This document shows, piece after piece, positions 8,629-40,167 of a stretch of 50,301 bases of DNA; the first letter of the stretch is position 1; every line of letters starts with the position of its first letter. The notes below the pieces were generated by a model. The model ran no database searches and had not been told where the DNA came from. It saw only the letters and a program-made list of their open reading frames with translations. Origin of the DNA: Candidatus Uhrbacteria bacterium (GTDB taxonomy: Bacteria; Patescibacteriota; Patescibacteriia; UBA9934; GWF2-40-263); the NCBI GenBank assembly GCA_018700535.1, contig JABITQ010000043.1, positions 1 through 50,301 of the forward strand, read 5' to 3'. Made by a program: the position numbers and the translations under genes.

Positions 8629-8658
8629 GCTAGGTAATTTTTTATCTACATCACTCTA

Positions 8659-8973
8659 TTACAAACACTTATACCCACAACTCTTCAACGTATCCGACAA
8701 CTGAACTTTCAATTGCGCACGCCCATTCCCACCTTTGAGATATTTCTCTCGACGTTTTGCCTCAGTTGCAGTGAGGTAAGATTCTGAGTAGATAAGTTTG
8801 AGTGGGAACCTGTTCTTGTTTGCGGGGACTTTTCCAGATTGATGTTCTTCAAGTCGGCGCTGAATGTCTGTTGAGTAGCCTACATAAAGCTTTCTGTCGC
8901 GCAGACTGAATAGAATATAGACGTGGTGTATATGTCTGAGTATAACAAAACAAGCCGCACTAAGCGGCTTGTT
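8659..8973 (-). CDS. GIY-YIG nuclease-family protein (UPF0213-like); open frame with no canonical start codon
   Basis: Not in the ORF track. Frame reads ...HVYILFSLRDRKLYVGYSTDIQRRLEEHQSGKVPANKNRFPLKLIYSESYLTATEAKRREKYLKGGNGRAQLK... No ATG/GTG/TTG before the domain; only ATA/ATT/CTG are available. Confidence 0.6.
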   Translation of the reverse strand, partial: NKPLSAACFVILRHIHHVYILFSLRDRKLYVGYSTDIQRRLEEHQSGKVPANKNRFPLKLIYSESYLTATEAKRREKYLKGGNGRAQLKVQLSDTLKSCGYKCL

Positions 8974-10578: not shown

Positions 10579-11946
10579 ATGTCTATTCTTTTTGTTATGG
10601 CAAAACAATATTGTTTCAGTGTTAAAGGAACCACGTGTGCGAGTTGCGAGGTGGTTATCGAGCGAGAGATTCGTCAGCTTGATGGGGTTCTTGGAGTTGA
10701 TGTCTCTCATCCGCGCGGAGAGGTAAGGGTTGATGTTCAAAAGGGGAGAGTGCTTGATCCATCAGAGCTGGATGAGATTTTAGGGAAGCACGGATATCGA
10801 TTTAGATTTCCAGAAGAGCAGGAGGAGCGCGGCGTGTGGAGCTTGAAGAGAATCGGTGCTGTGCTCCTTATTGTTGCGGCAGTTTACTTTGTTCTCGACA
10901 AGGTTGGGTTCTTGGTCTTTAGTCCAACACTCGATGGCTCCAGTGGATTCATCGGAGTGTTTGTTGTTGGGTTGATTGCGTCAGTCTCATCATGCACGGC
11001 TGTCCTCGGAGGGCTTGTCGTCGCGGTGTCTGCTTCTGAGGCAAAGAAAGGGGATGTGCAAACAACCTCAGAGCGCATGCGACCTCATTACTTATTCAAT
11101 GCAGGACGTCTCGCAGGGTTTGTCTTTTTTGGCGCCATCATCGGATTGATCGGCAGTCTCATACAGCTCTCTCCTGCAACAAATGGATTGATGATTCTCG
11201 TGGTCGCATTACTAATGATCGGTCTCGGTATTAATCTCTTAGAGATTGTCCCGCGCGGAGTCACGATACTGCGTCCACCCAAGTGGCTTTCACACAAGAT
11301 CCACGACCTCAGCTCATCGCACCACCCAAACGTTCCATTTTTTCTCGGAGCGCTAACATTCTTTTTACCTTGCGGATTCACACAAGCGATCCAGCTTTAC
11401 GCTCTTTCACTCGGTGACATGAAGTCGTCTGCGATACTGCTTGGAATTTTTGCTCTCGGCACACTTCCTGCTCTTCTTGGGATCGGTGCGATCACATCAT
11501 CTGCAAACGGGAAGAGGTTAAAACGCGTCACTCAATTTGCAGGCGTGCTTGTCCTCGTCCTTGGTGTGAGCAATGTTCAAAACAGCTTCGCACTGCTCGA
11601 CTGGCATCCGCTTTCTTTTACAAGCTCTGGCTACACAATGGATGCATCAACGTTCTCTATAGTAGATGGTGAGCAGGTAATTCAAATGGAGATCAGTGAG
11701 CGCGGGGTGTATATCCCGTCATCTCTTACAGTGGTAGAGGGCGTGCCTGTGCGCTGGGAGATTTTTGGCGCGGACTTTATGGGGTGCGCAGACTCGCTTG
11801 TTATGCGCGGGTTTGGTGTGAGTGAGTATCTTGAATCTGGAATGAATGTGGTTAATTTTATTCCTACAAAGACTGGCGATTTTACGTTTAGCTGCTCGAT
11901 GGGAATGATTCGCGGGACAATGCACGTTGTTGCTAACGAGGTATAA
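10579..11946 (+). CDS. HMA domain - TauE/SafE-like membrane domain - cupredoxin-like domain fusion protein
   Basis: N-terminal CFSVKGTTCASCEVVIE (CxxC HMA), ~7 TM segments, C-terminal VPVRWEI...FSCSMGMIRGTMHVV (cupredoxin-like). ATG 10597 is an alternative start. Confidence 0.75.
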   Translation: MSILFVMAKQYCFSVKGTTCASCEVVIEREIRQLDGVLGVDVSHPRGEVRVDVQKGRVLDPSELDEILGKHGYRFRFPEEQEERGVWSLKRIGAVLLIVAAVYFVLDKVGFLVFSPTLDGSSGFIGVFVVGLIASVSSCTAVLGGLVVAVSASEAKKGDVQTTSERMRPHYLFNAGRLAGFVFFGAIIGLIGSLIQLSPATNGLMILVVALLMIGLGINLLEIVPRGVTILRPPKWLSHKIHDLSSSHHPNVPFFLGALTFFLPCGFTQAIQLYALSLGDMKSSAILLGIFALGTLPALLGIGAITSSANGKRLKRVTQFAGVLVLVLGVSNVQNSFALLDWHPLSFTSSGYTMDASTFSIVDGEQVIQMEISERGVYIPSSLTVVEGVPVRWEIFGADFMGCADSLVMRGFGVSEYLESGMNVVNFIPTKTGDFTFSCSMGMIRGTMHVVANEV

Positions 11947-15649: not shown

Positions 15650-16018
15650 TCAGCTGCAGATGTAGTTCTCGACTTCTTCCTCGATCATCTGCTGTACTTG
15701 ATCGGCTCCCTTATAAGGGATGCCTTCTTTGCTGTTGAGCACAACTCCATCGCTTGGGCTGAGGATGATTGTGATCACAACCCGGCCCTCGTCTTTCACC
15801 TCGAAGCAGATTCCCGGTGACGCACCTTCGATCAAGCGACCAGAGATGGTCAGCATATAGGTTCGAAGAGTGGTGACGAGATTCTGTGCCATGATCATCG
15901 CAATGATGTCTCGGGCAAGTCGTTCTCGTTGGATCGCTGAGAGCACTCCGAAGTGTATCAGCATATTGGTGTCTGCGGGCCTGATAAGAGCCATTGAAGG
16001 CCCCCTTACTCTTTGCAT
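15650..16018 (-). CDS. hypothetical protein
   Basis: Start moved to ATG 16018 (GGAG 6 nt upstream), downstream of the TSS predicted from promoter 16051-16079. No domain recognised. Confidence 0.5.
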   Translation of the reverse strand: MQRVRGPSMALIRPADTNMLIHFGVLSAIQRERLARDIIAMIMAQNLVTTLRTYMLTISGRLIEGASPGICFEVKDEGRVVITIILSPSDGVVLNSKEGIPYKGADQVQQMIEEEVENYICS

Positions 16019-16668: not shown

Positions 16669-17832
16669 TCAGTGGCCGATGTGACGATCGAGACGATTCA
16701 ATGCACGCTCTACAGTCTCGTTGCCTGAGAACGTACCGGTGTTCAAGAAAGTACAGAGATCTTTGCCGGTGCCAGTTTCTAGCTCGGTACGCAGATCTAG
16801 TGAATGCTCCTTCTTCCATGGGAGCTCAGGTACACCTTCGTTGTGTTCACAGAGCGCTAGTAGTGCAAGTAGTTGGGTGAACAGAGGTTTGTCAGTGGCA
16901 AGGTGCTCAATCCAATACGCCGTGTTCGTTCCCGTTGTCTCAATGATCACAGCCTGCACTTTTGGACTGGTGTCTGAGGTAAATAATTCCTCAAGACGAT
17001 CTGACCAATCGCTCGTGAGCTTGTGTGAGATCAATCTCATTGTGGGGAGAAGCCACTCATGTGTCTCTTTCCCCGAACCATCGATCGCCCACTTGCAGAG
17101 CGTCCAGACATGCTCAGAGCTTTCATTTTCGATCGCTGCGATGAGTTCTTCTGACGCAGAGTTTCGAACCACCTCACGGCTCGTTATATGCGTCACAAAC
17201 TGAACGACAGTACCTGGCTGCATTCTTCGAATCAGATCGGGGAACAGATCGTCTGTTGGCGATCGGTGTGATTCTTGAGGTTCACAGAAGCGCTTGTCGA
17301 AGAATGCACATGCGATGGTGAGTATCATTGGGCTATGCTTCTCGATCACATATTCGTAATACTCTCGGTTGCGCAACACATATCTACACAAGAATTCGGT
17401 GTCCTCACATGTGTCGATGAAGAGTTCTGTGAGCTCGGGGCCCAGTGTTCTGCCTAGTAGAATCTTTTTCACCAGTTCAGGTTTTTTCAAAGCCTGGTAG
17501 GTTTTCATCAGAGCAATGACTTCAGCAACGAAGTCAGCACGTTCTTGGTTGTCTGCAAAAACAGCATGCGTTGGATTGAGCTGAGAGACTCGACTTTCTA
17601 GGAGCTCTGCAATAATCAAGCCGTATACATTTTTCTCTACAGGCATTTGTTGTACAGCCACTCCATGTGCGACACGCTGCACAACGAGCTGTGCATCCTG
17701 GCATCGATCCAAAACAAGTTCCTCACCCGCATGATAAGGGATCCGAACTTTGCCGTAGTAGTGATCACCAGTAGCTGGCGAAACACGTACAACTGTACCG
17801 TAGCCAAAGATAAGTTCACCTTTTTCCATCAC
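16669..17832 (-). CDS. hypothetical protein, mostly alpha-helical (repeat-like)
   Basis: 387-aa ORF with its own promoter and a terminator (ccccatctc/gaggtgggg + T-run). No motif recognised. Confidence 0.55.
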   Translation of the reverse strand: MMEKGELIFGYGTVVRVSPATGDHYYGKVRIPYHAGEELVLDRCQDAQLVVQRVAHGVAVQQMPVEKNVYGLIIAELLESRVSQLNPTHAVFADNQERADFVAEVIALMKTYQALKKPELVKKILLGRTLGPELTELFIDTCEDTEFLCRYVLRNREYYEYVIEKHSPMILTIACAFFDKRFCEPQESHRSPTDDLFPDLIRRMQPGTVVQFVTHITSREVVRNSASEELIAAIENESSEHVWTLCKWAIDGSGKETHEWLLPTMRLISHKLTSDWSDRLEELFTSDTSPKVQAVIIETTGTNTAYWIEHLATDKPLFTQLLALLALCEHNEGVPELPWKKEHSLDLRTELETGTGKDLCTFLNTGTFSGNETVERALNRLDRHIGH

Positions 17833-20340: not shown

Positions 20341-21123
20341 TCAATGCGTGAGGGAATAAGCGGGGATCCATTCCCCGTTTTCGAATTGCGAAGCGTGGGG
20401 GTTGCCGTGTTTGTTAAGTACGACGTAGGAGAGCCCAATCTGTTGTGGTTGGTCGTAGGCTGCACAAGGAATCCATCCGCCTTGCGAGTTGTCCCAAGTG
20501 CGAGTCTCCGCGTGACCTTCTTTGCATCCGACGATGAAGCATCCTTCAGGCTCAGGTCCAGGTCCTCGATGGAGGAGTGTGAACTTGGTGCAGGTGGCAG
20601 CGGTTGTCGTGTCGCATTCGCCTACTTGAGGCAATGCTTCTGAGCTGCTGCCGTTTTGGCTCAAGAGCATCATGCATACAGCAGCAATAAGGATGGCTGG
20701 TCGTGCAAGACCGAAGTCTCTGGGTGACCAGATGGGAGGATCTTTTGCTGCTGGTGGAAGGGGGTTGAGGATCGGAATCCTTTCAGTGCTTTCATCAGCA
20801 AAAGAATCCAGGACACCCTCCTCTGTCGCTTGTGAGGTAGAGCAGACACTGATGACAACCGAATCGAAGCGCTGATCCGGAGATTCAATTCTCACCTTTG
20901 GTACCCCGGCCTCTGAACTGACGTTGATGCCCACTTGCGGGTCTCCAGTAACCTGAATGCCAGGGCGAGTGATTGACCGATTGCCGGTACTCATGAAGAC
21001 TCCGTTTGGTCCAAGAAGAGAGATCTTTACTTGTTCACCAGGTCTTCCACCGACGATAGTCACTGTTACTCGGTGTCTTGTTGGAGAAGCATGTTGGCTA
21101 ATCCGTACGGTGATTGGTAGCAC
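20341..21123 (-). CDS. single-pass membrane protein with C-terminal Cys-rich ectodomain (paralog of 22990-24213)
   Basis: GTG start with GAGGAG upstream. TM ARPAILIAAVCMMLLS. C-terminal CTKFTLLHRGPGPEPEGCFIVGCKEGHAE...W..C..Y...NGEW is shared with the paralog. Confidence 0.6.
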   Translation of the reverse strand: MLPITVRISQHASPTRHRVTVTIVGGRPGEQVKISLLGPNGVFMSTGNRSITRPGIQVTGDPQVGINVSSEAGVPKVRIESPDQRFDSVVISVCSTSQATEEGVLDSFADESTERIPILNPLPPAAKDPPIWSPRDFGLARPAILIAAVCMMLLSQNGSSSEALPQVGECDTTTAATCTKFTLLHRGPGPEPEGCFIVGCKEGHAETRTWDNSQGGWIPCAAYDQPQQIGLSYVVLNKHGNPHASQFENGEWIPAYSLTH

Positions 21124-22989: not shown

Positions 22990-24213
22990 CTATTTGCAGC
23001 GCTTGAGCGTCCACTCGCCGTTCTTCAGTGTGGCGGTGTGGGTCGATTTGTCGTTGTCTGTGACGAGTGCGCAATTGTCGCTCTTCATTGCAGGGCGGTA
23101 ATACGGCTCGCAGCTGTCCCACGATCCGTCTTTCCAGACCATGGCCTCGGCGTATCCCTCAGAACATCCAACTACGAAACATCCACTTGGTTCAGGGCCC
23201 ATCTTGTTTTCGTGCAACATGGTGAACTTGGTGCATGTGCGTGGTTCGGGTGGTGGGGGAGGAGGGGTGGCGGCAGGAGCAGATTCCAGTTCGGGTGCCT
23301 GCACGATATCGTCTGGTGCAATGCGCGGCACGACGACCAGCTCTTGTTCAGCTGAAGGAGGATGCTGTTGCATGCCTCCGTCGCGCACAAGTGGTGTCCA
23401 CTCAAAGAAGTCGAACACCGGCTCTTGATGGGTTACAAGTCTGTAACCCACGAGGGGGATCATGCACATGAAACCAAGCAGCATGAGTGCACCCAAGATC
23501 CCCCAGAACATATTTGACCTAGGCCATCTTGAGCTGGATTCATCTGGGTTCTCGTCTCCAACACCTTGTACTGCATCCAGGTTCTTTTCGAGTTCAGGCG
23601 AAGGTTCGGGTCTTTCTCGTTCTTCTCGTCTTTCTCGAAATGGATCTAGTGATGGTGTTTGTGCAGCCTGTTGTCCTGGCACACAGTCATCCAGCAGCAT
23701 CAGGCTTCCGATACGAGCGGGAGGCTTGTTGACACCAGTCACTCGTGTGAAAACTGGTGCTGCGCGTTTGATTTCGTCTGTGTCATCTTCTTTGTCAGGG
23801 AAATCAGGGAGGTCGGTGCCGTCGGTGTTTGGAAATGAAGGTGTGACTGAAGATGGTGTTGATGCAGAGCTGTGCTGAAGTGTTACCGAGACTCTACGAT
23901 CAACAAACCGACTCCCAGGTGAGCAGATCAACACAACTGGATCGCCATCAGATGTTGCATGGATTGTGAAAACCAGCTGTGGTTCACTTCTCGCATCCGT
24001 GGATTCACATACACCAGCCAAGACAGGGCTAGGATTGTCAAAGGAGACTCCGCCTCCTCCGTTGATTCCACCATCAATGCCACTGAGCATGATCCTCAGT
24101 TGCTCTTTGGGTATTCCACCAACTACAACAACCTTTACTTTCTGAGTGTCACCTTCCTCCATCCGCTTGAGGGTGGTGGGTGTCACTCTGAGATAGATTT
24201 TCGAATGATCCAT
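22990..24213 (-). CDS. single-pass membrane protein with C-terminal Cys-rich ectodomain (paralog of 20341-21123)
   Basis: AGGAGG before the ATG. N-terminal beta-rich domain, acidic/Pro-rich linker, TM MFWGILGALMLLGFMCMIPLVGY. C-terminal CTKFTMLHENKMGPEPSGCFVVGCSEGYAE...NGEW. Confidence 0.6.
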   Translation of the reverse strand: MDHSKIYLRVTPTTLKRMEEGDTQKVKVVVVGGIPKEQLRIMLSGIDGGINGGGGVSFDNPSPVLAGVCESTDARSEPQLVFTIHATSDGDPVVLICSPGSRFVDRRVSVTLQHSSASTPSSVTPSFPNTDGTDLPDFPDKEDDTDEIKRAAPVFTRVTGVNKPPARIGSLMLLDDCVPGQQAAQTPSLDPFRERREERERPEPSPELEKNLDAVQGVGDENPDESSSRWPRSNMFWGILGALMLLGFMCMIPLVGYRLVTHQEPVFDFFEWTPLVRDGGMQQHPPSAEQELVVVPRIAPDDIVQAPELESAPAATPPPPPPEPRTCTKFTMLHENKMGPEPSGCFVVGCSEGYAEAMVWKDGSWDSCEPYYRPAMKSDNCALVTDNDKSTHTATLKNGEWTLKRCK

Positions 24214-25524: not shown

Positions 25525-25618
25525 GTAACACCTCTCAGTCACAAGGAAACGTGACAAGAGAAGATGTCATATTTTAGCCATTTTGTCAATGCTAAAAGTA
25601 GGATTGGTTCATTCAAAC

Positions 25619-25739
25619 AAAAAACTTCATATCGGATGAGATACGCCGTGCTGGAGCCAAAAAATTGATGAGTCGACCCTGCTGGTCGGTGAGTCAATTT
25701 TTTGGCGAAGCACAAGCAGATCGCCGATATGAAGTTTTT
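25619..25739. repeat. copy A of a ~122-nt rod-shaped structured element (partner at 34385-34508, opposite orientation)
   Basis: P1 25621-35/25724-38, P2 gtgct/agcac, P3 22-bp hairpin with tandem G.A. Junction sequences are identical to copy B while the P1 and P2 sequences differ but stay complementary. Confidence 0.75.
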
Positions 25740-26131
25740 TGGTGGAGCTGGGGAGAATCGAACTCCCGTCTGGTAAGTCTTTACAAAATGACGTTTCCAA
25801 GCGCATTCATGCTTGTTTACGTTGTGCGCTCAATGCATGAACAAATACGCACAGCGTTGTCGATCTGCAATCTTATGTAGGAGAGATCGACGACCTCATA
25901 CACCAGCTCGAATTATGACATTCGGATCAAAGCTATCGAGCGTTGCTAAGTCGAATGGTTCTCAAACCCTTAGGCGAGAACAGGAGCGAGAGCAGGAACA
26001 CTGAACGCATTCTTGATCTTCGCCATGACGTTGTTTGCAGTTGTAGTCTTGCGCTGAGGGATTTACGAGTGGCAGCACCCACTCGGCTTGATCATAGATG
26101 TAAGTGGCCCCCATCGATACCGATCAGCCCC
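25740..26131 (-). ncRNA. ssrA: tmRNA (SsrA), one-piece
   Basis: 5' GGGGCTGATCGGTATCGATGGGGG..., 3' ...CGGGAGTTCGATTCTCCCCAGCTCCACCA. Internal tag frame GCAAACAAC...GTTCTCGCCTAA (25970-26038) reads ANNVMAKIKNAFSVPALAPVLA*. Confidence 0.92.
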
Positions 26132-26135
26132 ATAT

Positions 26136-26261
26136 CCAGGATCCGACCAGTTGGCACACTGCTTCGTCACGATTCAATTTTTTTGTTCGATGTACTTTTG
26201 GGTACACCTCACAAAAAAATGGAATCGTTCCTCGCATTGCACTCAACTGGTCGAATCCTGG
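26136..26261 (-). other. 126-nt long hairpin forming the 5' leader of the tmRNA precursor
   Basis: ccaggatccgaccagttg (26136-53) pairs with caactggtcgaatcctgg (26244-61); the single mismatch is G.U only on the minus strand. Inner 16-bp A-run/T-run helix 26169-84/26213-28. Confidence 0.6.
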
Positions 26262-26287
26262 TTTCGTTAGAGATTTCTAACTGGGGA

Positions 26288-26316
26288 ACTATACTAAAAA
26301 ATAGCGTGATTGTCAA
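26288..26316 (-). promoter_or_regulatory. promoter TTGACA-N17-TATAGT, probable ssrA promoter
   Basis: TTGACAatcacgctattttttagTATAGT on the minus strand, ~150 nt upstream of the mature tmRNA 5' end. Confidence 0.6.
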
Positions 26317-31644: not shown

Positions 31645-33063
31645 ATGCGAATCATCGCACTGGCCATCGCGGCCGCCTTTGTGAGTGCACCTGCCATGGC
31701 GGCGGATGCCAAGGAATGCCTGAAGCTGCCCGGAGCTGTCAATGGTGACGGCGACGCGTACTGCAGCAACATCCCCGCCGACATGGTCTACGACTCGGCG
31801 ACGAAGACCGACGGGTTCAAGCCCGACTGCGACGACACCGACAGCACCATTTTCCCCGGTGCCAAGGAGGTCTACGGCGACGCCATCGACCAGGACTGCA
31901 ATGGCAGCGACGCTGAGCTCTCGGTCTCCGGACCGACACTCAGCCGCTGGCAGAGTGGGCCGGCCTACAGTGGCCGGACCTGGAGCGACAGTGTCTTCGA
32001 GACCGAGCGCGCACGCTGCGAAGCTGCCGCTGAGATGTGTGAGAACGATGATGCTCACGGTGAGCACGACCTGAGTCAGGGCTACCTGATGGTGGACCTG
32101 ATTCACGGCATCGCCCCCGCTGAGATCTTTGTCGGAAGCGTCCGCTTCGGACAGGATGGCATCCGTGAGGTTGTCAGCCTGGAGACGTGGGAATCCTACC
32201 GTCACCTTCGTGGAGCCAGCAGTGGCTCCCGTGGTCTCGGTCGCACCAGCGTCCAGAAGATGATCGCGGCTGACGCCGAGAAGCGTCAGCTCGAGCAGGA
32301 CAAGGTCGATGCGGCGCAGGACGCGAAGCTCGAGAGCCTCAAGAAGTTCGACGCAAAGATCGACAAAGATCTGGCCAAGGTCGAAAAGGAGCTCGGCGCG
32401 GCCCGAACGGACGGTACGGTGACGTACTCGTCCATCGGGGATCGGATGATGTCCCATGAGAACGCGTTCCAGAAGCTGGACGCCAAGCAGAGCAAGTTGG
32501 CGGCTCGGCAGAAGAGGAATGAAGGAGAGATCACCAAGAACACCGCGACCGCCCCCCTCGTTGAGGTGTATGCGATCGCAGGAACGGCCATGGGTCGTAC
32601 GGTCAATGCCGGTCGTCAGACTGTGCGGAAGCCGATGTCCTTGGGGGTTGGTGGAGGTGTGAACTTCGGTTCCGATCTCCCCGGCGGTCGTGCCAACATC
32701 TTCGTCGACACTTTTGTCGGTGGCGATGGCGGTGATGGCCCGGCCTTCAGCTGGTCTGGTGGTTTCGAAGGGATGCGTGATTTCGGCAACGACAATCACT
32801 TGGGTCTCTTCGGCAGCTACTCTGCTCGGTACTCCAACAGCGACAGCATGAACACGGCCGTTATCGGACGTCAGCTGCACATTGGTGTCGGTGGCGCCCG
32901 TGCCGTTTCGGGCAAAGACAATCGTCACCGTCTCGTGTTCGCACGTGCCGGAGTCGGTCCCGAAGTGGCAAGCATCGCCGGTATCGGTGGTGTTGGTGAC
33001 GATGTCGGCCTCTCTGGTCGCGTTGTCATCGGTGTCGGTGGCGGTGTTGGCGACCGCAACTGA
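31645..33063 (+). CDS. secreted protein: one MopE-type Cys/Asp motif, coiled coil, Gly-rich beta-type C-terminal region
   Basis: Signal peptide MRIIALAIAAAFVSAPAMA. CDDTDSTIFPGAKEVYGDAIDQDCNG. Preferred over antisense ORF 31420-33078, which has no signal, SD or motif. Confidence 0.7.
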   Translation: MRIIALAIAAAFVSAPAMAADAKECLKLPGAVNGDGDAYCSNIPADMVYDSATKTDGFKPDCDDTDSTIFPGAKEVYGDAIDQDCNGSDAELSVSGPTLSRWQSGPAYSGRTWSDSVFETERARCEAAAEMCENDDAHGEHDLSQGYLMVDLIHGIAPAEIFVGSVRFGQDGIREVVSLETWESYRHLRGASSGSRGLGRTSVQKMIAADAEKRQLEQDKVDAAQDAKLESLKKFDAKIDKDLAKVEKELGAARTDGTVTYSSIGDRMMSHENAFQKLDAKQSKLAARQKRNEGEITKNTATAPLVEVYAIAGTAMGRTVNAGRQTVRKPMSLGVGGGVNFGSDLPGGRANIFVDTFVGGDGGDGPAFSWSGGFEGMRDFGNDNHLGLFGSYSARYSNSDSMNTAVIGRQLHIGVGGARAVSGKDNRHRLVFARAGVGPEVASIAGIGGVGDDVGLSGRVVIGVGGGVGDRN

Positions 33064-33105
33064 TGGGTGGCTAGCCACAAACTACGAACGTGAACAAGAG
33101 GCTTA

Positions 33106-33166
33106 GATCCAACCAATCTCCTTCGGGAAATTGGTTGGATCGAGCCTCAACGCGTTGAGGGATTTT
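33106..33166 (+). terminator. tandem hairpin terminator
   Basis: gatccaaccaat/attggttggatc 12-bp stem, then cctcaac/gttgagg followed by GATTTT. Confidence 0.7.
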
Positions 33167-33224
33167 GCATGCTTGCAAGATCCCTTTTTTAGTTCCAACA
33201 GTTTTCGATACCCGTCTAAGAGGG

Positions 33225-33253
33225 TTGACAAAGAAGCAATTATGTGGTAGATT
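33225..33253 (+). promoter_or_regulatory. promoter TTGACA-N17-TAGATT
   Basis: TTGACAaagaagcaattatgtggTAGATT. ~135-nt leader with hairpin gagtcagaag/cttctgactc. Confidence 0.55.
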
Positions 33254-33397
33254 ACTCTCTCGTTCATTAAAACTAAACCCAATTTTGTTGAGTCAGAAGA
33301 CGCTTGTGTACGAGTATCTCGTGCGCAAACACCTTCTGACTCCAAGTGACAAATTCGTCATAACAGAGTTACACCCGCTCACCCCCGGAGACATCCA

Positions 33398-34219
33398 ATG
33401 AGCAACATCAACCTGTCGATTCTGGCCTTTCTGGCCATGGCCTGCAACCCCATTTCCATCGCCGATGGTCCCAAAAAGACCCTGGCGAATCAGGATGCGG
33501 ATGCGGACGCCGATGCGGACGCTGACGCTGATGCCGACGCGGACGCGGATTCCGACACCGACACCGACTCCGACACCGACACGGACACCGATGCCGACGC
33601 CGACGCTGATGCGGACGCCGACGCGGACGTGGACCCCGTGGACGATGATGGCGACGGTTACGATGCTGATCCCGACGTCGATCCCGAGTACGACTGCGAT
33701 GACACCGATCCGGATGTCAATCCGGGCGCCGACGAGGTCTGCAACGACATCGACGACGACTGTGACGGCGAGGTCGACGAGGGAGACGTTTGCGAGGATG
33801 AAGATCCGTGGAGTGACTACGTCGTTGCCAGTGGCAACAGCGTGTGTTTCTCTACCAGCGGCATGCGTTCGACCTACCAGTCGGCTGATGCCTACTTCGT
33901 CAGCAATGACATCACTTGGGCCGCGGAAAGCGACTATCGTGTCGATGCGGTCGATGGGTACTACTGTGTCTCCACCTCAGGGTGGGATCACGATGTGTAC
34001 GACGGGACGCTCATCAGCGCCGTCTCCAGCTCCGGCGGGACCACCTCCAGCATGGGTGACACTGCCGACTGGTGGGACAATCTGGACTTTTGCGAGAGCG
34101 AGAGCCCTGCTGCCGATGACTGGTGCACCATTACGGGTACCAGTGGGGGGTGGAACAACTACCTGATCCAGTTCGTTGTCACCAGCGATGGTGTTCAGGC
34201 GGCCGGTGACCTCGAGTAG
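33398..34219 (+). CDS. probable lipoprotein: D-X dipeptide tract, one MopE-type metal-binding repeat, C-terminal domain of unknown fold
   Basis: LAFLAMAC lipobox-like N-terminus. (DA)9-(DS/DT)7-(DA)6. DGDGYD...CDDTDPDVNPGADEVCNDIDDDCDGEVDE. Confidence 0.75.
   Translation: MSNINLSILAFLAMACNPISIADGPKKTLANQDADADADADADADADADADSDTDTDSDTDTDTDADADADADADADVDPVDDDGDGYDADPDVDPEYDCDDTDPDVNPGADEVCNDIDDDCDGEVDEGDVCEDEDPWSDYVVASGNSVCFSTSGMRSTYQSADAYFVSNDITWAAESDYRVDAVDGYYCVSTSGWDHDVYDGTLISAVSSSGGTTSSMGDTADWWDNLDFCESESPAADDWCTITGTSGGWNNYLIQFVVTSDGVQAAGDLE
33494..33631 (+). repeat. in-frame hexanucleotide (GAY-NCN) tract encoding 23 consecutive Asp-X dipeptides
   Basis: GATGCG GATGCG GACGCC ... GACACC ... 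GACGCG GACGTG; imperfect at the DNA level. Confidence 0.9.
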
Positions 34220-34349
34220 GCTCGGCTAGCGAAAAAGCGTCTCCATTTATGGAGAGTGTCACACGTTGTAGCCATTGGTTTCCTTTGGCTGACTTAATTG
34301 GGTTCTACTTCTGCGCCTTCATTGGTGTTGTGAGTTGCTACTTCGTGTG

Positions 34350-34384
34350 GCGTCTCTCATCATCGATGGGGGCGCTTTTTTTTT
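34350..34384 (+). terminator. intrinsic terminator of 33398-34219
   Basis: gcgtctc/gggggcgc stem (two G.U pairs) followed by T9. Confidence 0.55.
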
Positions 34385-34508
34385 AAATACCCATCAAAAT
34401 GGCGATCTACTTGCCCTTCACTAAAAAAATGATTCATCGACCTGCGGGGTCGACTCATCAATTTTTTGGCTCCAGGGCGGCGTATCTCATCCATTTTGAT
34501 GAGTATTT
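34385..34508. repeat. copy B of the ~122-nt rod-shaped structured element (inverted relative to copy A)
   Basis: P1 34385-402/34491-508, P2 gccct/agggc, P3 34421-42/34448-69. Junctions ggcgtatctcat, ctcc and cgatctactt match copy A 12/12, 4/4 and 9/10. Confidence 0.75.
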
Positions 34509-34557
34509 AATCGCAGGAGATTTTGGCTAATCTTGGGGGAAATACTGTCCAAAACTA

Positions 34558-34586
34558 TTGACAAAAGTGCTGAAATGTGCTATATT
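34558..34586 (+). promoter_or_regulatory. promoter TTGACA-N17-TATATT
   Basis: TTGACAaaagtgctgaaatgtgcTATATT. ~300-nt hairpin-rich leader. Confidence 0.6.
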
Positions 34587-34894
34587 TGTCACACGATGTA
34601 GAGATGGGTGGTTTAAGAGAGCCAGTTGTTTCTTTCAAAAATAGACTTTTATTAGTCTTTTATAATGGGGATGAGAGTCTGCTTGGTTTTTACTGGCAGT
34701 ATTTGGCGCATCCTTGAAGAGGATGTGTTTTTGTCAGGTGAGTTCTGACAAAGGATTAGTTGTTGATTCTTTGTCGAAGCGCATCTGCGCTGAAAGATAC
34801 CCCTCCGGGGGTTCGGTGACCGATCAGGCAGTCTGCGATTTGGCGTGGATTTGTTTGGAAGGTTATGACTGGTCCCGGAAGGGAAGGAGTACAA

Positions 34895-36481
34895 GTGAAT
34901 AACAAATTCCTGGCAGCATTGCTGCTGGTTGGTATCGGTGCCTGCAACGGCCCGATGACGGCCTTGATGGGTGGTGGTGGAAACGGCAGTCGCAATGGCG
35001 GCGTCGAAGACACTGCTGGCTCTGAGGACACTGCGGGCGATGAGCTCGATACCGGTGCCGAGGAAGAGGTTGAAGAGGAAGAAGAGATTGTCGAAGACAC
35101 CGATGGCGAAATCAGCACTGGTGATGACGAGCCTGCGCGTGAGGACTACGACGGTGACGGCTTCGTTGGCGACAACGATTGTGACGAAACCGATCCGGAG
35201 ATCCATGCGTACGCCGAGGAAATCTGCGGCGACGATATCGACAACAACTGCAATGGCGAGATCGACGAAGTCCTCACTGTGTCCTACCAGGATGCGGACC
35301 AAGACGGCTACGGCGATCCGAATGCAATGGTGGCTGCCTGTGACGTGCCTTCGGGTTATGTCACGGACGACACTGATTGCGATGACCATGATGACGACGT
35401 CTACCCCGGTGCGGACGAGCGTGAGGACGGCGACGACAACGACTGTGACGGCGAGATCGACGAGGGATTCGGTGGCGACACCGATGACACCGGCGGTTAC
35501 GACGACACAGGCGATGGCGGCGACGACACTGGCGGCTCGGACGACGGTGGTGATGACACGGGAGGCTCGGGCACCGGCGCCGACGCTGGTGATACGGGCG
35601 ACTGGGACACCGGCGGTTCGGACACCGGAGACGTGGGGGATTCTGGAGACTCGGGTGATACCGGGGACACGGGAGACACTGCTGACACGGGGGATTCCGG
35701 CAGCTGGGACACTGGTGGCGACACCGGAACGGTCGACATTGGTGCCGATGGCATCGACAACGACGGTGACGGATACGTCGACGGCGACGACTGCGATGGT
35801 GATGAGGGGACTTCGTCTCCCTCCACCTACTACGCGGACGTCGACGGCGACACCTACGGAGACTTGTCTGACAGTCAGGACGCCTGCCTGCAGCCTACCG
35901 GCTACGTGGCAGACGACACCGACTGTGATGACGACGACTCGGCGGTGAACCCCAGTGCGAGTGAGATTGAGGACGGCATCGACAATGACTGCGACGGCTC
36001 CGTTTCGGAGCTGGCGTACTGGTCGGATACGACCGGTGATGGCAACGTCAACGCCATGTGTCTGAACTCGTCGATGTTCGGCGACGCGAGCTACTCGTAT
36101 GAGGGTGCTCTCGTGGTCGGCTACGACCTGTTCGATTGGTCGACCGACACCGGTCTGGTCGAGGATGGGGGAGACCTCGTCATGGTGGAAACCAATGGCT
36201 TCCACTGCCTCGACTTCTCAACTCTGAGCTCTGACACCAACGTGCTGTTCACCATGATCAGCGCCGTGGAGTCAGATGGTACGACCTCCGTGTCGTCCAG
36301 CTCATCGAGTTCCTCCATCATCTGGCATGTGCTGGGTGATCCGTGCAACAACGCGGTGGAGGGCGAAGTTCTCTATGAGGTCTGTGCAGCTCAGACGAGC
36401 AGTACGTTCCTCCTCGAGGTCGATTGGAATGCCGTTCTCGGCCTTCTCACCGCCTCTGGCGACAACGCGCCAATCAGCTGA
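34895..36481 (+). CDS. probable lipoprotein with multiple MopE-type Cys/Asp repeats and a (D/G/T/S)-rich tract
   Basis: GTG 34895 with GGAAGGAG 6 nt upstream. LLLVGIGAC lipobox. Repeats of DxDGDGYG...C..P.GYV.D..DCDD.D..V.PGA.E..DG.DNDCDG.IDE. DTGDSGDTGDTGDT tract. Confidence 0.8.
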   Translation: MNNKFLAALLLVGIGACNGPMTALMGGGGNGSRNGGVEDTAGSEDTAGDELDTGAEEEVEEEEEIVEDTDGEISTGDDEPAREDYDGDGFVGDNDCDETDPEIHAYAEEICGDDIDNNCNGEIDEVLTVSYQDADQDGYGDPNAMVAACDVPSGYVTDDTDCDDHDDDVYPGADEREDGDDNDCDGEIDEGFGGDTDDTGGYDDTGDGGDDTGGSDDGGDDTGGSGTGADAGDTGDWDTGGSDTGDVGDSGDSGDTGDTGDTADTGDSGSWDTGGDTGTVDIGADGIDNDGDGYVDGDDCDGDEGTSSPSTYYADVDGDTYGDLSDSQDACLQPTGYVADDTDCDDDDSAVNPSASEIEDGIDNDCDGSVSELAYWSDTTGDGNVNAMCLNSSMFGDASYSYEGALVVGYDLFDWSTDTGLVEDGGDLVMVETNGFHCLDFSTLSSDTNVLFTMISAVESDGTTSVSSSSSSSSIIWHVLGDPCNNAVEGEVLYEVCAAQTSSTFLLEVDWNAVLGLLTASGDNAPIS

Positions 36482-36493
36482 CAACTGATTCTG

Positions 36494-36555
36494 AGACCCG
36501 GTTCCCGATTGACTTGCATACGTGCATATCATGAAGGGACCGGGTCTTATTTGTT
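36494..36555 (+). terminator. intrinsic terminator
   Basis: agacccggttccc / gggaccgggtct stem followed by TTATTTGTT. Confidence 0.65.
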
Positions 36556-36629
36556 ACCTATCATCAACAAATGTCGGTTTTGCCTATATTTAGGCTATTT
36601 TTATAACAGCGAATATCCAGGGTTTACCA

Positions 36630-36658
36630 TTGACAGAACCGGCTATAAATGGTATAAA
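36630..36658 (+). promoter_or_regulatory. promoter TTGACA-N17-TATAAA
   Basis: TTGACAgaaccggctataaatggTATAAA. ~150-nt leader with AAGGAGAG SD. Confidence 0.6.
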
Positions 36659-36816
36659 TTCGGGTCAAATTAGCTCAAAATGATTCATGAAGACTTTTGA
36701 TTTCAGTCCTTTCTGAGGGTTGAAACCAGGAGAGTTCAGACAACAAGCCCTCTCATAGCGGTCCTGGACGCTGTGAACATGAGGGTAAATTCCCCAGTGA
36801 AGCAAGGAGAGAACCG

Positions 36817-40167
<3,351 letters not shown>

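Follow-up and report, generated by a model that had tools for sequence, protein, structure and literature searches.

A strand-specifically structured family of ~125-nt hairpins at transcript boundaries and in the ssrA leader of Uhrbacteria-like CPR bacteria

Introduction

What occupies the DNA immediately beyond the tmRNA 3' end in a Candidatus Uhrbacteria genome? In a 50,301-nt stretch (GenBank contig JABITQ010000043.1, hereafter the window), the initial annotation had marked a rod-shaped element in two copies, one abutting the tmRNA gene at 25619–25739 (+) and one on the reverse complement of 34385–34508. It had read the element as a functional RNA or protein-recognized structure and dismissed a drifting duplicate or MITE, while allowing that the first copy might be an elaborate ssrA terminator. 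Here we follow up these readings computationally in the window and in related genomes.

Results

Copies A and B Share a Three-Helix Rod

The sequence at both loci was as annotated, and folding confirmed a common three-helix rod. Copy A spans 25617..25741 with + as the folding strand, antisense to the tmRNA, and consists of an outer stem (P1), a core, and the closing arm of P1 (cmsearch, 125.3 bits on + vs. 42.3 on −). Its core (25634..25725, +; GGATGAGATACGCC ... AAGCAGATCGCC) is family-specific and runs from a basal AGAU/AGAU tandem G.A through P2 and a GGAG loop to P3, which carries a UGAG/UGAG tandem G.A. Copy B (34385..34509) folds on the − strand, antisense to both flanking + strand genes, and scored 125.5 bits on − vs. 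40.6 on +. The predicted folding energies were −60.5 kcal/mol for copy A (z = −10.1; complement −55.9 kcal/mol) and −60.1 kcal/mol for copy B (z = −9.2; complement −49.4 kcal/mol).

The two copies were 87% identical over 92 nt by BLAST, with a sharp fall at the inner ends of P1; the P1 arms were only 51% identical, against 87% for the cores. The finer points of the initial annotation also held, including the swapped P2 pairs (gtgct/agcac in A vs. gccct/agggc in B), the P3 5' arm identical at 22/22 positions, the tandem G.A/A.G in both copies, and three G.U pairs in the copy A hairpin. A 44-nt block was exact in A (+) and the reverse complement of B except at two P2 positions; the corresponding pattern, which runs from the 5' junction through P2 (two positions left free) and GGAG into the P3 5' arm, matched twice in the window vs. 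0 matches expected from shuffles. The statement that P1 differs between copies was correct for A and B but did not extend to the relatives, whose P1 arms resemble those of copy B.

Differences between A and B fell unevenly (2 in the 5' half, 10 in the 3' half; binomial p ~0.02 by hand calculation), a skew that we do not treat as meaningful. Outside the rods, the sole stretch common to the two loci was 23 nt long and corresponds to the clade's generic TTGACAAAA...TG promoter.

At copy B, the upstream 273-aa gene ends in a terminator-like hairpin with T9 (34354..34384, +; terminator scan) immediately before the rod. The promoter of a 538-aa MopE-repeat gene (34558..34586, +; TTGACA-17-TATATT with TG; promoter scan, 11/12 matches) lies 49 nt beyond the rod and is directed away from it. 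Orthologues of copy B occupy the same intergenic site in the related loci L030, L033, and L038.

A Third Rod in the pre-tmRNA Leader

A full-length tmRNA gene (ssrA) was identified at 25740..26131 on the − strand (Rfam RF00023, 123.9 bits, model positions 1–374 of 374); ARAGORN missed this tmRNA. Copy A does adjoin its 3' end: on the tmRNA strand, the rod starts at the nucleotide after the encoded CCA. The element is, however, not confined to two copies. A third, diverged rod, copy D (26137..26261), shares the − strand with the tmRNA and falls in the 5' leader of the pre-tmRNA (−, 62.9 bits, E = 4e-12; +, 26.8 bits), and more copies occur in relatives. Copy D ends 5 nt before the mature tmRNA 5' end, is flanked by neither an A-run nor a T-run, and has a predicted fold of −71.5 kcal/mol (z = −13.2; other strand −53.3). 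The tmRNA gene is thus bracketed by two rods, A and D, both wholly outside the tmRNA model boundaries (at +1 and −6) and not part of the tmRNA itself. Because the ssrA promoter (26288..26316, −; TTGACA-17-TATAGT; consensus scan, 11/12 matches) is upstream of copy D, D is predicted to be transcribed within the pre-tmRNA.

Orthologous leader rods were recovered in L033–L036 (92.5 bits), L139 (41 bits), and L041 (diverged), and L030 retains a deletion remnant. Promoters were found upstream of the sense leader rods in the window, L033, L139, and L041; L029 and L038 have no leader rod, and their promoters lie 8 nt from the tmRNA. A further rod in L041 (16829–16955) lies 44 nt beyond a sense-oriented TTGACA-17-TAGATT promoter, with no gene following it on that strand.

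Three other accounts of this arrangement were rejected. Pairing of leader D with trailer A into an rRNA-like processing stalk fails, as the cores are only 42% identical and their complementarity is negligible. The idea that rods are inversion sites for the tmRNA segment, suggested by a flipped tmRNA in L139, was discarded because the L139 promoter, which lies outside the rod, is flipped too and the breakpoints are outside the rods. Island integration as the source of copy A was not borne out, there being no duplicated tmRNA 3' end in the window.

A Previously Undescribed Family in a CPR Clade

A covariance model (R1) was built from six copies, with relatives found by BLAST, and retrieved 13 forward copies in seven genomes, namely that of the window and six related CPR genomes. 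R1 E-values are rough owing to a shortened calibration, and the orientation of weak matches was picked by the model. An exhaustive unfiltered scan of the window returned exactly three copies (A, B, and D), the other matches being short plain hairpins with equal scores on both strands; 737 kb of unrelated viral DNA gave no match at E ≤ 1. Syntenic loci of the relatives were retrieved through SmpB homologues (70–81% identity); among named SmpB homologues, the nearest belong to Candidatus Uhrbacteria or Patescibacteria. Gene order in these loci is SmpB, ssrA, an AI-2E transporter and, further along, a PDZ protease, a Wzz-like protein, and MopE-repeat proteins. Rods are 121–129 nt long, typically ~125 nt.

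No known family accounted for them, and the initial annotation had matched the element to none. A scan of the window against Rfam 15 at gathering thresholds returned the tmRNA and a tRNA-Asp alone, and E-value scans of A and B gave only chance-level miRNA and snoRNA matches far below gathering score, none of them credible for either copy. BLAST against phage and plasmid collections found no match, and viral contigs scanned with the pattern GATGAGATACGCCNNNNNGGAGCC yielded 0 matches; of two broader viral scans, one gave 94 pattern matches with 0 model matches and the other 0. On these grounds we excluded a phage or plasmid origin. The same pattern produced four chance matches in a GTDB genome set and, in JGI metagenomes, loci A and B of the same organism plus five chance matches; as an exact pattern, GATGAGATACGCCNNNNNGGAGCC is too specific to this genome. 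No equivalent of the rods was found described in the literature.

Protein-level searches likewise offered no partner. Pfam scans of the window ORFs found no transposase, RAYT, Y1 transposase, integrase, reverse transcriptase, or Nop-domain protein. The rod-neighboring ORFs (407, 395, and 352 aa) had no Pfam or PDB matches and were dropped as candidates for Tas, an integrase, or a transposase. A retron msr-msd was rejected given that no reverse-transcriptase domain occurs in the window ORFs scanned, and a small ORF in the core that might have been conserved (MRYA[V/A]LEPKN, or one from an ATG in P3) is missing in relatives.

The initial annotation had proposed a covariance model, a homologue search, and a covariation test; all three were run with a positive outcome. 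The rods are a real, previously undescribed family of strand-specifically structured ~125-nt hairpins in a CPR (Uhrbacteria-like) clade.

Covarying Stems, Conserved Loops, and a Fixed Folding Strand

Covariation was assessed first in a six-sequence MAFFT alignment not fitted to structure, with 500 shuffles and partner slides as controls. RNAalifold predicted 49 pairs, 28 of them with compensatory changes. Paired cells amounted to 97.9% vs. 80.1% in shuffles, double-change pairs to 28 vs. 12, and the covariation score to 0.565 vs. 0.199; none of the 500 shuffles attained the observed value on any of five measures, and all measures collapsed when partners were slid by 1–3 columns. MAFFT misaligned the diverged members when given all 11 copies, and CM-based alignments were used instead. 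With reverse-strand rows removed and the alignment analyzed by script, the 13 forward copies from the seven genomes showed compensatory pair types at 46 of 48 pairs and 93.8% canonical cells (about 63% after shuffling). Part of this compensatory count is block exchange rather than stepwise compensation, because cores are swapped between sites as blocks, independently of P1 (see below).

Across the 13 copies the stems vary and the invariant positions sit in small loops. The basal conserved motif, 5'-G..UGA.AU / AGAUCG.C.CA-3' (written out, 5'-GG-A-UGA-GAU / AGA-UCG-CC-3'), may be depicted as UGA/UCG pairs leading into AGAU/AGAU, a two-fold symmetric block with tandem G.A. The P2/P3 loop has a conserved GAG, the middle loop is GGA/GA, and P3 contains a conserved AG.CG...CG..GA, a second symmetric tandem G.A (UGAG/UGAG in the window). 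Besides the two tandem G.A, the non-Watson-Crick features that persist are a conserved U.G, a bulged A, and loops of 3x2 and 5x3. Conservation does not reach the apical loop, and long unpaired stretches are absent.

The initial annotation had taken A(+)/B(−) as the folding orientation, an assignment that G.U pairs, tandem G.A, and folds more stable than those of the complements now bear out. Over the 13 copies, G.U outnumbered A.C by 45 to 8, an excess that fixes the folding strand. The model strand was the more stable in 12 of 12 copies, by 0.7–21.3 kcal/mol, and forward/reverse CM scores were 125/42 bits for A, 125/41 for B, and 63/27 for D. The folding strand is + for A and − for B and D, and structure is maintained on that one strand.

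Terminator-Class and Leader-Class Rods

Each rod is a composite of a site-specific outer stem, P1, and a family-specific core of ~90 nt, and by position the rods fall into two classes. Leader-class rods (D) closely follow a promoter that reads in their folding orientation, and their P1 lacks an A-run or T-run. In terminator-class rods (A, B, and the relatives' B and C), P1 is flanked by AAAAAC...GTTTTT and the core invariably lies antisense to the gene upstream.

On the tmRNA strand, the copy A DNA (25617..25741, −) reads as the predicted ssrA intrinsic terminator, in the order CCA, AAAAAC, P1, the core in loop position, P1, and TTTTTT (fold −55.9 kcal/mol). The U-tract is the complement of 25619–25624, so that a hairpin and a U-tract stand at the transcript 3' end (CCA, AAAAAC, stem, GAAGUUUUUUG). 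Copy A occupies the ssrA terminator position, and D falls within the ssrA transcription unit. All relatives have AAAAAC-hairpin-GTTTTT directly after the tmRNA CCA, which upholds the "elaborate ssrA terminator" suggestion for P1 and the T-run. A plain A5-hairpin-T6 takes this position in L030, L033, L041, and L038 (loop 3–4 nt) and in L029 (13 nt), and the L029 loop, CCGATGATCTGTG on the rod strand, resembles fused core ends. The ~90-nt core fills the loop position in three cases (the window, L040, and L139), each time antisense to the tmRNA. Plain terminators at unoccupied sites of the window have the same outer sequence, e.g., CAAAAACGCCAATTGGGCGTTTTTTTG.

By position and sequence, P1 with its A-run and T-run in A, B, and C is the clade's normal bidirectional intrinsic terminator. 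What sets the rods apart is that compact terminator hairpins have loops of about 3–8 nt, whereas the rods hold a ~90-nt structured, sequence-conserved module in that place. The U-tract of copy B is weak (UAUUUAAU) and copy D has none, and a consensus terminator scan called none of the rods. Leader-class copies cannot be terminators, as they have no U-tract.

Rods B and C are placed after the upstream gene's own terminator and 27–81 nt before a strong promoter of the next gene, and their cores run antisense to both genes; in L033 the promoters lie 28 nt beyond rod C and 81 nt beyond rod B, and the terminator layout upstream of C is as at B. Promoter scans of the window and relatives found no consensus promoter ahead of A, B, or C on the folding strand. 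Of the functional-RNA reading in the initial annotation, the conserved structure and genuine covariation stand; a discrete functional RNA from copy A is unsupported, its folding strand having no recognizable promoter and being antisense to the tmRNA.

Insertion of the core into an unrelated terminator loop was also considered, and was weakened by the P1 kinship among B and C copies and partly revived by the plain terminators at empty sites. We keep "core in terminator loop" as a description of the composite architecture, not as a demonstrated insertion.

Cores Are Exchanged, Gained, and Lost

Copy B of the window is 52–67% identical to its own orthologues, compared with 87% between the cores of A and B. 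Between L030 and L033, non-coding spacers are 92.5–97% and P1 arms 89–100% identical, while identity is 90% in the C core and 76.7% in the B core, entire helices being rewritten. Cores diverge 3–7 times faster than the flanking DNA and must therefore have been exchanged between sites: within a genome, copying or conversion from one site to another outpaces the divergence of the flanks. This block replacement is independent of P1, and it implies that further donor copies probably exist elsewhere in these genomes.

Rods are also gained, lost, and internally deleted among close relatives. Site occupancy varies among the window, L029, L030, L033, L038, L040, L041, and L139; deletion remnants persist in the L030 leader and the L029 terminator loop; and the C site of the window has no rod. 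Subtypes recur at other sites in other genomes, a rod of L041 resembling the left rod of L139 and the L040 copy A the right one.

In light of the patchy cores, the remnants, the within-genome homogenization independent of P1, and divergence faster than that of non-coding flanks, the dismissal of a repeat or MITE-like nature had been too strong. The rods behave as small intergenic imperfect palindromes with presence/absence and deletion variants, as MITEs do, but lack conserved terminal inverted repeats (P1 arms of A and B 51% identical, cores 87%), and no direct repeats indicative of target-site duplication flank any copy inspected.

Discussion

A Palindromic Repeat Family at Transcript Boundaries

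ERIC (IRU) and Correia/NEMIS repeats have reported effects on termination, RNase processing, and mRNA stability. Our leading, still tentative, reading is that copy A belongs to a small ERIC/Correia-like palindromic repeat family co-opted at transcript boundaries. Like those repeats, the rods are intergenic imperfect palindromes in the 100–150-nt range that form long hairpins when transcribed, sit beside genes in either orientation, and differ between relatives by presence/absence and internal deletion. ERIC and Correia elements have conserved terminal inverted repeats, TA target duplications, and tens to hundreds of copies; the rods, in contrast, have site-specific termini, conserved internal loops, no duplications seen, three copies in 50 kb, and a small-genome CPR host. 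Lacking conserved termini, target duplications, and high copy number, they are classed as a variant akin to the ERIC/Correia type, not as a member.

REPINs offer a second comparison. They are ~100-nt extragenic hairpin repeats with long vertical persistence, within-genome sequence populations, and paired changes that maintain the hairpins (PMC3116915), all of which the rods share. A REPIN, however, consists of two conserved inverted REP arms around a variable spacer, the opposite of the rods, in which 46 of 48 pairs vary and the internal loops are conserved; REPINs also number tens to hundreds per genome and come with a RAYT gene; within its 50 kb the window has three copies and encodes no Y1 transposase.

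Under this repeat reading, copy A on the tmRNA transcript would zip up as a long hairpin followed by U6 and so terminate ssrA transcription, and on the opposite strand it may stop transcription running back into ssrA; that a 120-nt hairpin terminates transcription is what its position and U-tract suggest. RNase P would release leader copy D as a stable rod RNA. A protein most likely recognizes the tandem-G.A loops, and the candidate binder could be an RNase or RNA-binding protein acting on RNA, or an enzyme that copies the core as single-stranded DNA.

Several observations sit uneasily with a repeat. The 50-kb window encodes no transposase, RAYT, integrase, or reverse transcriptase, and with neither target-site duplications nor common terminal inverted repeats, classical transposition is unsupported. 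Apparent copy number is low, all copies seen being grouped in a region of about 10 kb that holds ssrA and the MopE genes. Retention at orthologous sites across SmpB identities of 70–81%, together with the conserved loops, exceeds what a selfish repeat needs, and terminator-class rods fold best on a promoterless strand, which is odd for a purely RNA-level role.

Alternatives

A dedicated functional RNA is a serious rival, if an unlikely one. The rods would then be trans-acting or protein-sequestering sRNAs, made mainly as a by-product of the pre-tmRNA leader and from stand-alone units, with terminator-embedded copies as extra genes driven by weak or divergent promoters and the repeat behavior reduced to incidental gene conversion between paralogues. 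The small conserved loops in covarying stems, and the conserved G.U and tandem G.A that every copy has on the same strand, are what such an RNA would show; leader rods lie within the transcription unit in four lineages, the L041 rod at 16829–16955 resembles a stand-alone unit, and copy B is kept at its orthologous site in four lineages. Yet every site is dispensable in some close relative: the leader rod is missing in L029 and L038 and present only as a deletion remnant in L030, copy A gives way to a plain terminator in L030, L033, L038, and L041, and the C site of the window is rodless. Evolution is faster in the cores than in the neutral-looking flanks, scans detected no sense promoter for A, B, or C, and the variable apical loop and lack of long single strands leave little for target pairing.

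At a comparably low level of credence we place a more specific proposal, that the core is a new clade-specific protein-binding RNA, made in stoichiometry with tmRNA as an RNase P-released leader and from satellite units, that would recruit or titrate a dimeric factor through its two tandem-G.A sites; or else the folded single-strand site of an undescribed copy/exchange enzyme targeting hairpin loops.

It is improbable that the rods are mere long terminator or structural hairpins, with arms created and kept paired by replication template switching (PMC8794818) and a core that is a local duplication without specific function. DNA hairpins may gain "compensatory" changes in single switch events, all copies lie in one ~10-kb neighborhood, and the plain terminators of the clade match P1 together with its A-run and T-run. 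Template switching perfects palindromes, however, and the rods keep their non-Watson-Crick features across 13 copies, about 30% SmpB divergence, and rewritten stems. The leader rods, having no U-tract, are not terminators, and the strand asymmetry (G.U 45, A.C 8) is unexpected from a strand-symmetric DNA process.

We think it quite doubtful that the rods are single-stranded-DNA recombination sites like integron attC, shuffling variable MopE-type surface-protein genes and other segments. The resemblance to chromosomal attC sites such as Vibrio VCRs is considerable, in that these too are imperfect palindromes of about 120 nt (rods 121–129 nt) downstream of ORFs, with the functional, bottom strand antisense to the upstream ORF and within-genome homogeneity exceeding between-genome similarity; rods B and C also flank a single, highly variable gene, and G.T and G.A are the most stable DNA mismatches. 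But attC sites have R and L boxes at a conserved hairpin base, a variable center, an integrase, and cassette arrays. In the rods the conserved sequence is internal and the base variable, and RYYYAAC/GTTRRRY boxes are absent, with only AAC/GTT in the A-run/T-run of some copies and not even that in leader copies. No integrase was found in the window, the relatives keep synteny in the genes around the rods, neither the leader rods nor the opposite orientations of A and D suit a cassette array, and the inverted ssrA cassette of L139 has its breakpoints outside the rods.

Finally, it is highly improbable that the rods are guide RNAs of a Nop-domain (Tas) protein, whether TIGR-type stem-loops or otherwise box C/D-like, and for TIGR guides the idea is effectively refuted: CPR Tas proteins are associated with stem arrays (PMC12045711), and the rods share with those units the CPR host, hairpins with short conserved motifs beside helices, tandem G.A with UGAUGA-like sequence, and weak, chance-level Rfam matches to archaeal C/D sRNAs (E = 1.5–9.5), but Pfam and PDB sequence searches of the window and rod-adjacent ORFs found no Nop, Tas, IS110-like, or RuvC match, the rods are dispersed rather than in tandem arrays, their loops are tiny (2–5 nt; 5x3, 3x2) and conserved where guide spacers are variable and about 9–10 nt, and the tandem G.A is symmetric, with the region between fully paired and no 3-nt bulge on the side that K-turn geometry requires.

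Implications for CPR Genomes

CPR/Patescibacteria have tiny genomes with very few described non-coding elements, to which the rods add a concrete one that is strongly covarying, strand-specific, and unmatched in Rfam or among known repeats. For covariation analysis they carry a caution, since block exchange between paralogous hairpins inflates "compensatory" counts. Their architecture is unusual, with ends that vary by site, internal loops that are conserved, and seats in terminator loops and the ssrA leader. Exchange of the core between hairpin loops, if it occurs, would point to a way of propagating repeats that has not been described for classical MITEs. If the core is instead a protein-binding RNA released from pre-tmRNA, tmRNA biogenesis would be linked to another RNP, and such a new RNP would have ties to ssrA expression or to the control of transcript boundaries in these reduced genomes.

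The tmRNA gene is flanked by rods in inverted orientation

ARAGORN made no tmRNA call for this CPR clade, either in the window (25740-26131, minus strand) or at any of the related loci tried; the Rfam model RF00023 detects the same tmRNA loci in the window and its relatives with scores of 94-124 bits. A third, diverged rod, copy D (26137-26261, minus strand), lies in the pre-tmRNA 5' leader, with the ssrA promoter (26288-26316) on one side and the tmRNA 5' end on the other. With copy A at the 3' end (25617-25741, plus strand), the tmRNA gene thus has a rod on either side, the two in inverted orientation. In three related loci (L033, L041, and L030), the 3' arm of the leader-rod outer stem P1 runs into the mature tmRNA and covers its first 2-3 G residues (10868-10869, 11547-11549, and ∼4303, respectively), an overlap that would put the leader in competition with the acceptor stem. 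The window differs from these loci in having a gap of 5 nt between the leader rod and the mature tmRNA.

The relative L040 (12008-12210) has two copies, spaced about 170 nt apart, of the final ∼22 nt of its tmRNA (TGGTGGAGCTGGGGAGAAT): one adjoins the rod, and the other marks where the tmRNA truly ends and has a plain terminator of its own. This duplication resembles the trace left by a small integration event at the 3' end of ssrA; no such duplicate of the tmRNA 3' end was found in the window. In another relative, L139 (4167-4935, compared with window 25617-26316), the entire ssrA cassette, comprising promoter, sense rod, tmRNA, and antisense rod, is inverted relative to the genes for SmpB and an AI-2E transporter.

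Promoters of the clade

Promoters of the clade have in common an extended −35 element (TTGACAAAA), a 17-nt spacer, and a TATnnT −10 element that is often TG-extended. This pattern occurs in the window at 26288-26316 and 25561-25589 (both minus strand) and at 34558-34586 (plus strand), and in relatives at L033 18285-18313 and 19702-19730 and L139 4167-4195. The 23-nt similarity beside copies A and B is due to this common promoter pattern.

Neighboring protein genes

Downstream of a Wzz-like gene, the window encodes a row of copper-binding MopE-repeat proteins of 472, 273, 538, and 1116 aa (31645-40167, plus strand), with a counterpart at L033 16498-20447. Between close relatives these proteins are only 27-60% identical, vs. 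92-97% for the intervening spacers. Two unannotated minus-strand proteins of 407 aa (22990-24213) and 260 aa (20341-21123) are 44% identical over a shared domain of roughly 75 aa at the C terminus, which recurs in a 395-aa orthologue at locus L029 (4823-6010, minus strand); there were no matches in Pfam or PDB.

Rods and hairpins at other sites

In an independent metagenome assembly (L006/L022), a contig ends 24 nt inside copy A (window ∼25642), consistent with assembler failure at this palindromic repeat. After the Wzz-like gene, L033 carries two neighboring plain hairpins (15773-15821 and 15824-15917, minus strand), long and nearly perfect, with A-runs and T-runs; the equivalent position in L041 is taken by a full rod (16829-16955, plus strand) that has a promoter of its own. 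At locus L138, a diverged rod-like hairpin (8656-8776, plus strand; a weak match at 21 bits, E = 0.003) has a 116-aa gene on one side and rplT on the other, which suggests that this genome holds more members of the rod family at other sites.
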